From IMG/VR virus record IMGVR_UViG_3300045988_154566, positions 70,167 to 134,166 of that record: a stretch of 64,000 bases of DNA. One strand, written 5' to 3'. This DNA is from a virus. Each line of letters opens with the position of its first letter. Position 1 is the first letter of the stretch. Shown here piece by piece: positions 49,620 through 51,919 of this stretch. The notes under the pieces were generated by a model that did no database searches, was not told the DNA's origin, and saw only the letters and a list, made by a program, of their open reading frames with translations. A program made the translations under genes and the position numbers.

Positions 49620-49650
49620 TAAATAAATAAAAAAAGAACGAGAATTACTT
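49620..49650 (-). terminator. intrinsic terminator upstream of the tail fiber gene
   Basis: AGAACGAGAA-GTAA-TTCTCGTTCT then T7. Confidence 0.5.
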
Positions 49651-50256
49651 CTCGTTCTTTTCATCTACTGTATAAACATAACCTTCATCACCTAATACAC
49701 CAGACTCCTTATCTAAATCAATAACCCATTTAGGTAATTTTTCTCTAAGTGTATCAAATTCTTCTTTTCCGTTATAAGGCGCTGTTTTTACTTTATTCAT
49801 AAATTCAAAAAATGTAATCTCTGGAATTATATTTATCATATCCTGAGCCATTCCCGCATATTGAGCAGTATACATAGTTTTTAAAATTTCTTCATTAATC
49901 TGATTTTCAATTTCTTTATAGCAACTATGATAAAATCTTTTTGCATTAAAAAGATTCTGTTCTGCAAACATTGGTTTTTCATTTAAACATTTAATATAGC
50001 TAAAATAATGAGAAACCATCTGCTCAACTGTAAATCGAGTAATTCCTCCATTGAAAGGATTTTTCTTTTTACAAAATTTAATTGCATTAATTGCCGCAGC
50101 GGTTGAACCAACAAGACATAAATCCCAATTGTATAATGGAATTCCGCCATTTTCTTCTATGCCTATTCTTGTAATAGAGTGTTCTGAACCAGTCCTCCAA
50201 AGATAGATAGGGTCTTCAATACGATTTATCATTAATGGAGAACCTTCTATACTCAT
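49645..50256 (-). CDS. candidate 3' exon of a split family-2 glycosyltransferase
   Basis: INRIEDPIYLWR fits the GT2 ED..L..R motif that follows the DxD region. The frame is open 13 codons upstream of the Met. Confidence 0.35.
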   Translation of the reverse strand: MSIEGSPLMINRIEDPIYLWRTGSEHSITRIGIEENGGIPLYNWDLCLVGSTAAAINAIKFCKKKNPFNGGITRFTVEQMVSHYFSYIKCLNEKPMFAEQNLFNAKRFYHSCYKEIENQINEEILKTMYTAQYAGMAQDMINIIPEITFFEFMNKVKTAPYNGKEEFDTLREKLPKWVIDLDKESGVLGDEGYVYTVDEKNEK

Positions 50257-50459
50257 TCGTATTTCCCAGTTAAATTGTCCGTCTTCCCGATATATTCAGT
50301 ATAGTTCGCTAAGCTATACCCGTTCTCTTATGAACTGCTAAATATCTCTATCTAGTCTAGACTATATCACCAACTTTTAAAAAGTTGTCTGCCATTTCGG
50401 ATTGCTTAATCCTACTCCTCCGCCGAGGATAGTCGTTGAACCTTCTTAACTAATAATAA

Positions 50460-51122
50460 TTAAATATAAATAAAATGATAGCCACCTGTTGTTTTTCTTT
50501 TTCCATTACATACAGCCGAGATTAATCTAAAATTTAATCCCATTTGTCGACCTGCTTCATGCGCACTATCAAAAATAACATTTGTTTCAAGACATTTAAC
50601 TTGTTTTGACTGTCCATGATTTTCTATAGTTTTATAATCTATTTTTCCTTTTTCATTATATTCATCAAGATACATAAAATGATGACCTTTGATTTGACCT
50701 TGTAAATGATTACAAACTCTAGACAAATCACCTTGACTAATTCCTAATTGATTAGCACATTCCATACAACCATCATAAATTTTTAAAGTATCAGTATCAA
50801 TAATTTTTCGTTTTTGACCATTAAGAATTGAAGACCCTCCTCCTTTTATATTATAACCTTTAAGAGGGTCACAACTATTATATAAAGAAATATAATAGAT
50901 TTCATATTGATTTAATTCTTCTCTTTTACATTCTTTTAAAATTTCCCATGAAAAATTTTCAATACCTGTCTCCCTAATTTCTTTATCAAGGACTCCATGA
51001 TAATGCTTCTCATTACTATAGTTTTTAAAAAAATGGTCTTTTATTCGAGATTCAATATTGATACTTTGACCAATATAAACTTTATTATTTATATTATTAG
51101 TAATTTTATAAATACCTATCAT
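50460..51122 (-). CDS. GIY-YIG homing endonuclease
   Basis: MIGIYKITNNINNKVYIGQSINIESR GIY-YIG; C-terminal DNA-binding-like region; flanked by structured non-coding sequence. Confidence 0.7.
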   Translation of the reverse strand: MIGIYKITNNINNKVYIGQSINIESRIKDHFFKNYSNEKHYHGVLDKEIRETGIENFSWEILKECKREELNQYEIYYISLYNSCDPLKGYNIKGGGSSILNGQKRKIIDTDTLKIYDGCMECANQLGISQGDLSRVCNHLQGQIKGHHFMYLDEYNEKGKIDYKTIENHGQSKQVKCLETNVIFDSAHEAGRQMGLNFRLISAVCNGKRKTTGGYHFIYI

Positions 51123-51361
51123 TTTATTTAATAACTCCTTTTTATTAAAAATTAGATAGCTATTATTTTATATTTTATTATTAGTAAGCTTGGCTGCTGA
51201 TTGCCCATTGTTTTATAATATTTTAGGATTACTCCATGATACATCTCTTAACTTATTTCTGCTTTCGCCCTATTATATAAAATATAATAGTATAAGAGCT
51301 TTAGGGGTTTCCAGCAATTAAACAGATTTTTCATTACCCCTCACAGGGTAAAGCCACTGAA

Positions 51362-51919
51362 TTAGTTAATGGCGCGCAATTCAGAAAACTTAATTCCAGC
51401 TTCTCTAAGGAATGAAACTCGATATAAACGACCAAATACCCAAGGATGTGTAACATCATTACGCGGCATCATTCTCGGAGGCACGCCCTGCCCCATCTGA
51501 ATTAATTGTTGTTTTTCTGCAACACTCATCTTACCTTGTTCTATCTCTTGGAAGAATGGACCTTGTACTTCAATACAATTTGGAGTTGTATTATCTAATA
51601 GACTTTCAATAGAAAATGGTGAAATAAAAATATCATCAGCATCTATAAAAGTTATCCATTCCGCAGTACAGGCATCTAATGCTCTTTGTCTTGCAATACC
51701 AGGACCCGCGTTTCTATCACAGTTTACTGTAATAATTTCTAAATCTGGATATAATGTTTTTAAAAAATCATATTTTCCATTATCTGCGGGGTCGTCATTA
51801 GCAATAATAACCTGGCATCTACTCTTATAACTCTGTATCTGAATAGATGCCAAAGTATCTTTTATTGTTTCTATTGCATGAAAAGCAGGAATTCCAATAG
51901 CTACATCTTTCTTACTCAT
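51362..51919 (-). CDS. family-2 glycosyltransferase, N-terminal part (candidate 5' exon)
   Basis: GT-A motifs GIPAFHA, IIANDD, DADD; 185 aa, shorter than a full GT2 domain. Confidence 0.55.
   Translation of the reverse strand: MSKKDVAIGIPAFHAIETIKDTLASIQIQSYKSRCQVIIANDDPADNGKYDFLKTLYPDLEIITVNCDRNAGPGIARQRALDACTAEWITFIDADDIFISPFSIESLLDNTTPNCIEVQGPFFQEIEQGKMSVAEKQQLIQMGQGVPPRMMPRNDVTHPWVFGRLYRVSFLREAGIKFSELRAIN

Follow-up and report, generated by a model that had tools for sequence, protein, structure and literature searches.

A group I intron with a GIY-YIG endonuclease gene interrupts a predicted TarP/TarS-like glycosyltransferase gene of an uncultured gut phage

Results and Discussion

We analyzed a stretch of 64,000 nucleotides (nt) from the IMG/VR virus record IMGVR_UViG_3300045988_154566 (positions 70,167 to 134,166, hereafter the window), which belongs to an uncultured gut phage of ~147 kilobases (kb). 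In this window, a 1,081-nt intron interrupts a gene of glycosyltransferase family 2 (GT2). We consider it very likely that the insert is a mobile phage group I intron of an IA2-like type that carries a GIY-YIG endonuclease gene, and that it splits a gene for a TarP/TarS-like glycosyltransferase. The intron is real and intact: its boundaries, a covarying RNA architecture, an intact endonuclease gene, the presence/absence polymorphism of the insert, and the single fold of the host gene product were all established. All features of the split locus described below, including every ribozyme element, are on the minus strand.

Exons and intron boundaries

An earlier note, made from the sequence alone, had listed three minus-strand open reading frames (ORFs) at 51362-51919, 50460-51122, and 49645-50256, and these ORFs are present exactly as it gave them; the strings that it quoted are present as well. 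The first ORF encodes 185 amino acids (aa) and, in agreement with its assignment to GT2, matches Pfam Glycos_transf_2 (PF00535, E-value (E) 2.2e-15, residues 8-171). The last ORF encodes 203 aa and has no Pfam match. We used a provisional fusion of these two ORFs as the query of a homolog search. The best 120 of 784 matches were single proteins of 365-402 aa with a coverage of at least 90%, mostly 98-100%. The closest among the matches listed, P0001, has 397 aa and is 94% identical.

Aligned to the two window ORFs, the intron-less homologs read ...FSELRAMEDGQFNWEIRMSIEGSPL... and ...KFSELRAMEDGQFNWEIRMSIEGSPLMINRIEDPIY... across the junction. Therefore, exon 1 ends inside the Met184 codon, exon 2 begins at 50287, and the intron occupies 50288-51368, boundaries that follow from colinearity with P0001 and with the intron-less contig L001. 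Exon 1 (51369-51919) contains codons 1-183 and the first two bases (AT) of Met184, as read from the PF00535 match, the homolog alignment, and the spliced translation. It ends with ...GCGCGCCAU at the 5' splice site (also ...GCGCGCCAT, last base 51369). The intron starts with UAACUAAUUCAGUGGC and ends with ...GAAUAUAUCG (...AUAUCG), its terminal G being 50288. Exon 2 (49645-50287) encodes residues 184-397 up to the stop codon; it opens with the G that completes Met184, followed by EDGQFNWEIRMSIEGSPL, and its first letters are GGAAGACGGACAA from base 50287. Its start lies 31 nt upstream of the ATG at 50256, and the ATG picked by ORF callers is the internal Met195. The predicted junction of the ligated exons is GCGCGCCAU/GGAAGACGG, or equally GCGCGCCAT/GGAAGACGGACAA (slashes mark splice positions throughout). 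These boundaries revise those of the earlier note. It had taken INRIEDPIYLWR as the point of continuation, and the second ORF does start with MSIEGSPLMINRIEDPIYLWR, but the homologs place the start of exon 2 upstream of it. The ED motif that it saw at the start of the second ORF is in fact the MEDG that straddles the junction, and the intron extends over 50288-51368 instead of 50257-50459 plus 51123-51361.

When the exons were joined in silico, they gave a 397-aa GT2 protein that is colinear with P0001. The joined exons also aligned with the intron-less gene of contig L001 with no gaps and 95.1% nucleotide identity, and at the insertion site L001 reads TTCTGAATTGCGGGCTATGGAAGATGGACAGTTC. Excision of the intron thus leaves an uninterrupted reading frame whose product is colinear, with no gaps, with ~120 intron-less homologs. 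Exact joining at the U/...G/ sites restores the colinear 397-aa protein, an arrangement that is far beyond chance. A different junction, SELRAI/IEGSPLMINR... (385 aa), was also considered and was rejected in favor of RAM/EDG, since the homolog alignment showed that 12 residues would be missing. The RAM/EDG junction falls inside the block LRA-M/EDG, and L181-R-A-M-E-D-G187 is invariant in an alignment of 38 sequences. Judged from this alignment, the position of the intron is the most conserved block of the glycosyltransferase gene. Homing introns typically sit in the most conserved block of their host gene.

Ribozyme structure

The structure model of the intron was built by hand from Rfam alignments of its two halves and from direct reading of the sequence. 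In all 17 helices of the model, every pair is canonical in the window sequence. In P1 (51353-51373), the internal guide AGUGGC (51353-51358) is paired with the exon sequence GCCAU (51369-51373) and with the first intron nucleotide, U1 (51368). P1 was read directly from the sequence and from an RNAfold prediction across the junction of exon and intron; its 6 pairs are canonical, and the U·G wobble is exactly at the splice site. This position coincides with the junction that had been fixed independently by protein colinearity. P2 (51334-51351) is a hairpin of 7 base pairs (bp) with a GUGA (GNRA) tetraloop. The 5' strand of P3 (UCUGUU, 51321-51326) pairs with GGCAGA (50388-50393) across the endonuclease gene. 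P4, P5, and an extension of P5 occupy 51195-51316; P4 is formed by 51311-51316 with 51195-51200, and the extension of ~96 nt contains P5a, a 9-bp hairpin, a GAAA-capped stem of 2 bp, and a GUAA-capped stem of 3 bp. The 5' strand of P6/P6a (51175-51194; GCC, AAG, CUU, and ACUAAUAAUAA) pairs with the 3' strand at 50440-50459, which begins directly after the stop codon of the endonuclease gene.

The 3' part of the catalytic core (50360-50434) was taken from the Rfam alignment, and all of its pairs are canonical. It consists of P7 (GACUAU at 50429-50434 with AUAGUC at 50360-50365), P7.1 (50417-50428, CCUC-GGCG-GAGG), P7.2 (50399-50412), the 3' strand of P3, and P8 (50371-50387). Next comes P9 (50338-50355), which has a GAGA tetraloop, was likewise taken from Rfam, and covaries. 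P9.1 (50323-50336) and P9.2 (50299-50319) were found by direct reading and RNAfold, and a tail leads from P9.2 to the terminal G. The core helices P3-P8 are in canonical order, and the P3/P7 pseudoknot is included. The intron ends in a G, and the U in the U·G pair of P1 directly precedes the 5' splice site, as is required of a group I intron. P7.1 and P7.2 between P7 and the 3' strand of P3, as well as P9.1 and P9.2, correspond to the extra helices of subgroup IA2. By its P7.1 and P7.2, the intron would be classified as IA2-like, and this subgroup is heterogeneous (PMC11878797).

The GC-rich structured flanks described in the earlier note were found in part. The 3' flank is mildly GC-rich (36.6% vs 31.8% for the window), but the 5' flank, with 27.6%, is below average. 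Of the two hairpins quoted there, CTCCTCCGCCGAGGAG is the plus-strand reading of P7.1, but GATATAGTCTAGAC contains the 3' strand of P7 together with J7/9 and does not form a hairpin by itself.

Rfam matches and covariation

The covariance search of the flanks that the earlier note had suggested found Intron_gpI (RF00028, curated gathering score 50 bits) in both halves. The flank 51123-51377 aligned with model positions 1-133 (P1 to P6) with 17.9 bits and E 0.017, and 50338-50470 aligned with model positions 108-253 (P6' to P9) with 48.4 bits and E 9.1e-12. Only separate scans of the two non-coding flanks placed the halves correctly; scans in one piece, of the whole window or the whole region, put P1-P6 wrongly onto the end of the endonuclease ORF. 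Rfam scans of the region and of the window matched no family other than Intron_gpI to the insert, and the window scan yielded no second group I intron at E up to 0.01.

More than 120 phage contigs of IMG/VR share the core pattern GGTTCAACGACTA...GATATAGTC, and many of these contigs also match the 5' half of the intron including the P5 extension. Twelve of the checked loci contain 15 endonuclease-less introns that pass the Rfam gathering score with 60-100 bits. To assess covariation, the window intron minus its endonuclease gene was aligned with 13 endonuclease-less relatives (alignment A4, 14 sequences), and the structure was projected onto the columns. Standard pairs were formed in 78.1% of the cells, compared with 35-41% when the partners were slid by 1-3 columns. 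The 78.1% is inflated, since a sequence of this same alignment had supplied the structure. Pairs changed on both sides numbered 56 vs 20-28 with slid partners, and these compensatory counts are not inflated to the same degree. None of 500 shuffles reached these values. The covarying helices are P3, P5a, P6, P7.2, P8, and P9. In P3, 4 of the 6 pairs changed on both sides and 84.7% of the cells were paired; all 6 pairs of P5a and all 4 pairs of P7.2 covaried. P7.2 and P4 were 100% paired and P6 97.6%, and P7 was essentially invariant.

A second lineage of the same intron was found in L007 and is 97.8% identical to the window intron. Its 172-nt 3' core has no difference from that of the window. 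C23U and G29A leave P2 of L007 fully paired, and with an insertion/deletion in P6/P6a the stem forms again, its register being shifted.

The glycosyltransferase

The DxD motif of the glycosyltransferase is D93-A-D95-D96 (DADD, residues 93-96). About 90 residues past it is the invariant E185-D186 at the junction, which, from the spacing to the DxD motif and from knowledge of the family, we take to be at the expected catalytic-base position of TarP/TarS/RmlT-type enzymes. When the junction region was compared with the PDB, only chance matches came up, and the catalytic base was not located by sequence.

In the AlphaFold model of the intron-less P0001 (mean predicted local distance difference test score 87.1, predicted template-modelling score 0.87), one GT-A domain precedes a helical domain, and the junction residue 184 is just before the helix 185-197. 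In a Foldseek search of the PDB with this model, the best matches were TarP, TarS, and RmlT (E 5e-14 to 1e-10). About 350-385 columns were aligned, and therefore these matches span both exons. Sequence identity to the three proteins was 14-17% and the query-normalised template-modelling score ~0.5. Unrelated folds in the two ORFs, which the earlier note had named as evidence against a split gene, were not found; in the predicted structure, both ORFs contribute to one fold, that of a TarP/TarS-like glycosyltransferase. TarP, TarS, and RmlT are wall-teichoic-acid glycosyltransferases. The joined protein might thus be a glycosyltransferase acting on a surface polymer, as we infer from the modeled fold. 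Similar to these enzymes, the P0001 model has a GT-A domain and a helical C-terminal domain. Unlike them, the phage gene is in the tail-fibre module of a large phage and not in the position of a prophage moron.

The endonuclease

The endonuclease ORF (50460-51122, 220 aa) lies wholly in the P6a loop. Its N-terminus has the GIY-YIG domain that the earlier note had recognized between the glycosyltransferase ORFs (PF01541, E 2.4e-10, 41.0 bits vs a cut-off of 22.6). The C-terminus matches an I-HmuI NUMOD-like domain (E 9.4e-11, 41.6 bits vs a cut-off of 27), and there is a weak match to NUMOD1 (15.1 bits). The protein belongs to PHROG 314 'homing endonuclease' (E 8e-32). The N-terminal domain can be aligned with 1MK0, the catalytic domain of I-TevI (E 6.6e-5), with conservation of GIY (residues 3-5), YIG (residues 15-17), Arg25, and the Asn of the GYN motif. 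Between the window and L007, the endonuclease codons differ by 10 synonymous and 4 non-synonymous changes, which is consistent with an intact endonuclease under purifying selection. In the segment ahead of the gene (51123-51175), RNAfold predicts a small AU hairpin whose loop contains the Shine-Dalgarno sequence AAGGAG. By analogy, this hairpin may serve translational control like that described for I-TevI.

Distribution and mobility

At least 11 contigs of up to 147 kb, which come from independent samples, carry the identical intron-plus arrangement. In the protein neighborhood at 90% identity, the cluster of exon-1-only 185-aa proteins has 30 members, compared with 72 in the cluster of intact 397-aa proteins, and the contigs are ~145-156 kb long. 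Among the IMG/VR loci with glycosyltransferase homologs, 25 of 27 were uninterrupted. L001 and L128 carry intron-less alleles. Thus, alleles with and without the intron both circulate within this phage lineage, and the intron is apparently mobile. Both exons keep open frames, and their differences from the intron-less alleles are mostly synonymous; within 36 nt of the junction, all 7 differences between L001 and the joined exons are synonymous. The synonymous differences of L001 seemed clustered near the junction, but the dip of L128 at the junction (89.5%) is within its background of 91-97%, and a co-conversion tract is not claimed.

A different intron-like element of 919 nt splits a distant homolog of the glycosyltransferase (48-61% amino-acid identity) in L152:2082-3000 (IMGVR_UViG_3300028797_002495). 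Its site, ...ATGGAGGAT/...AAAG/GGTGAATTT, is 7 nt downstream of that of the window intron, and therefore at least two invasions of this conserved motif have taken place. The L152 element forms a P1 of its own, with a U·G pair (GGAGGAU with AGUCCUCC), and its 3' half is a weak match to Intron_gpI (21.6 bits, E 8e-4). It encodes an endonuclease with GIY-YIG and NUMOD3 domains that is only 30% identical to the window endonuclease.

In a 150-kb relative, IMGVR_UViG_3300014039_000016 (L128 and L064), the glycosyltransferase gene has no intron and the same group I core pattern occurs elsewhere. Therefore, intron content differs locus by locus between close phages. A megablast search of GenBank phages with 24 kb of the window gave no match, and tblastn with the fused glycosyltransferase gave one weak match only.

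Proposed mechanism and alternative explanations

From the anatomy of the intron and knowledge of the family, we infer splicing, DNA cleavage, and homing as follows. The gene would be transcribed as exon 1, intron, and exon 2, and the intron RNA would fold into the P1-P9.2 ribozyme with the endonuclease ORF looped out of P6a. An exogenous guanosine would attack directly behind the U that forms the U·G pair of P1 (...GCCAU/), and the freed 3'-OH of exon 1 would then attack after the terminal G at 50288. The exons would be joined to encode ...LRA-M-EDG... and the full 397-aa enzyme; unspliced RNA would give only the 185-aa fragment, which stops two codons into the intron. The endonuclease would be translated from its own ribosome-binding site. 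In a mixed infection, it would cleave alleles of this gene that have no intron, close to the site of insertion, and repair from the intron-plus copy would spread the intron.

Several observations weigh against an active intron of this kind. As one match, the whole region scored 30.9 bits (E 2.4e-5) with Intron_gpI, below the gathering score, because the model cannot bridge the ~715-nt insertion in P6a. The minimum-free-energy z-score of the 3' half was only -1.0, as expected because the partners of the P3/P7 pseudoknot lie outside that piece. P5 proper has only 3 bp, and P10, in which UUC (51359-51361) can pair with GGA of exon 2, also has only 3 bp. The exact spliced 397-aa protein is absent from a collection of 15 billion proteins, which thus holds neither an assembled complementary DNA nor an identical intron-less allele. 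In the endonuclease, the residue corresponding to the catalytic Glu of I-TevI is two positions off in the pairwise alignment and so is uncertain. At 12 nt in the window and 15 nt in L007, the endonuclease gene has a long spacer between its Shine-Dalgarno sequence and its ATG.

One alternative is a decayed, splicing-dead remnant, in which case the glycosyltransferase would be a pseudogene in this lineage and the insert would be kept only by its endonuclease. Such a remnant would agree with the one-piece Rfam score, and the glycosyltransferase is an accessory gene that could be lost without death of the phage. However, every core helix is intact and the splice sites are canonical. Two lineages with a difference of 2% in other parts have an identical 3' core, and pairing is retained where P2 and P6a have changed. 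The exon frames are open with mostly synonymous differences, including all those next to the junction. We therefore regard a dead remnant as improbable. Less probable still is a free-standing GIY-YIG gene between two halves of a glycosyltransferase that is assembled from two polypeptides with no RNA splicing. The public records annotate three separate genes (185, 220, and 195 aa) in every copy of the locus, the second glycosyltransferase ORF has its own in-frame ATG, and free-standing homing endonuclease genes between phage genes are common. However, EDGQFNWEIRM, 11 residues that include the invariant E-D-G, would be lost since every possible start codon comes after them, and the ATG at 50256 has no ribosome-binding site ahead of it. 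Moreover, the 418 nt of conserved ribozyme sequence that flank the endonuclease gene would be left unexplained.

Other intervening elements, namely a group II intron, an intein, or an assembly chimera, are effectively refuted. Intron_gpI is the sole Rfam family found in the insert. The insert is out of frame and contains stop codons, and thus it is not an intein; the identical arrangement on contigs from independent samples indicates that it is not a chimera. A group I intron with an intact GIY-YIG gene in the glycosyltransferase gene therefore remains by far the most likely explanation.

Comparison with other phage introns

The earlier note had likened the locus to the T-even layout of a group I intron with a GIY-YIG gene, as in td and I-TevI, and the Rfam matches of the flanks, the covariation, and the restored colinear protein bear this out. 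The I-TevI gene sits in P6a of the T4 td intron. The window intron resembles td in its IA2-type P7.1 and P7.2 and in a GIY-YIG ORF that forms a loop of P6a and is preceded by a ribosome-binding site of its own; in both cases, the insertion is in a highly conserved and catalytically important codon block. They differ in the host gene, which is thymidylate synthase in td and a glycosyltransferase in the window. I-TevI has a zinc finger and a helix-turn-helix, whereas the C-terminus of the window endonuclease has NUMOD1 and I-HmuI-like modules. The ~96-nt P5 extension is not typical of td either.

In DNA searches with the intron against annotated sequences, td was not among the matches listed. 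The closest annotated matches were the T-even nrdB intron (RB3 or T4) and introns of the Staphylococcus Kayvirus/Twort type. Identity to these introns is ~72% over 50287-50444, which covers J6/7, P7, P7.1, P7.2, the 3' strand of P3, P8, the 3' strand of P7, and P9 to the terminal G. The stretch 50288-50355 is ~71.5% identical, through the last base, to annotated Intron_gpI features of Staphylococcus phages, and some Staphylococcus records annotate the matching stretch as Intron_gpI. Unlike the window intron, the nrdB and Kayvirus introns can be aligned only over the 3' half, their endonucleases are of the HNH type (I-TevIII) or otherwise unlike, and their host genes function in nucleotide or DNA metabolism or in lysis.

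The 5' half with its P5 extension matched only introns of uncultured IMG/VR phages. Six of these (L022, L034, L054, L016, L081, and L015) have the same core and the same extended P5 and are 63-71% identical over the 5' half. All of them are above the Rfam gathering score (60-94 bits). Unlike the window intron, they have no endonuclease in P6a and are in other host genes; those of L054 and L022 split a gene of PHROG 4088, a PHROG without annotated function. An HNH endonuclease gene adjoins the intron of L022 (L022:967-1296). The closest relatives of the ribozyme, which also have the P5 extension, are clustered, with two introns within 750 nt in L054:5073-5822 and four within 3.2 kb in L049:308-3503.

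Introns of Bastillevirinae phages are mostly similar to subgroup IA, and 32 of 45 ribozymes are interrupted by an endonuclease-coding loop; the phage genes that are invaded overwhelmingly function in core DNA or nucleotide metabolism or encode terminase (PMC11878797). An exception to the usual host genes is provided by cluster J mycobacteriophages, which are reported to have spliced introns in capsid and tail genes (PMC3706429). The introns of both groups are phage group I introns, as is the window intron. In a full-text literature search, no glycosyltransferase host gene of a phage group I intron turned up. The range of host genes of phage group I introns is thus extended to an accessory surface-glycosylation gene, as predicted here, in a structural module. 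The element is of a known selfish type in an unusual host gene, and it does not change the known mechanism of such introns. For annotation, the three ORFs of the public records are unrelated by label, and the real product is predicted to be a 397-aa TarP/TarS-like glycosyltransferase. Alleles with and without the intron circulate in gut phage populations, as does the second intron at a distance of 7 nt, and together provide a natural system in which to study homing and the choice of endonuclease targets in uncultured phages.

Genomic neighborhood

The glycosyltransferase gene is located between putative tail-fibre genes. Its upstream neighbor is an ORF of 407 aa, and the downstream one encodes a protein of 1,128 aa that has a Peptidase_G2 domain. 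A promoter-like site upstream of the gene (51951-51980; TTTGCA, 18-nt spacer, TG, TATAAT) was found in a consensus scan with 10 of 12 matches and an extended -10 TG. This site is only suggestive because the total of such sites in the region was not above that of shuffles. An intrinsic-terminator-like hairpin (49631-49662), with 14 bp followed by a T-run, overlaps the end of the gene.

The 1,128-aa protein (46219-49605, minus strand) is tail-fibre or pre-neck-appendage-like and is encoded immediately downstream of the glycosyltransferase. Its identity to the L128 counterpart is 20-55% across ~1.8 kb, and L128 is otherwise 92-96% identical. From this comparison, the ~1.8-kb stretch of the gene looks like a hypervariable host-range region. 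It is conceivable, although rather unlikely, that RAMEDG, the presumed catalytic-base motif of this glycosyltransferase family, is a recurrent homing hotspot and that cutting and repair by the endonucleases during co-infection drive tail-fibre exchange between gut phages. The hotspot part of this idea comes from the at least two unrelated pairs of intron and GIY-YIG gene that invaded RAMEDG 7 nt apart. Since the invaded gene is directly upstream of the hypervariable tail-fibre gene, repair could drag flanking host-range determinants along. If so, the intron would be a driver of tail-fibre exchange and not a neutral passenger.

Further along the minus strand, a radical-SAM protein gene (45249-46181) and a DUF2828/DUF7788 gene (42884-44359) lie between the tail-fibre gene and a c-di-GMP-I riboswitch aptamer (42767-42840), which scored 62.3 bits, above its gathering score. 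Downstream of the riboswitch are an unannotated 157-aa ORF with a TTG start (42301-42774) and an AAA-ATPase gene (41375-42208). The window also contains 25 tRNA genes in two arrays (44418-45150 and 56162-63465), all on the minus strand. One of them is a tRNA-Asn with the unusual anticodon ATT (61829-61898), which was called by ARAGORN only and not by Rfam.

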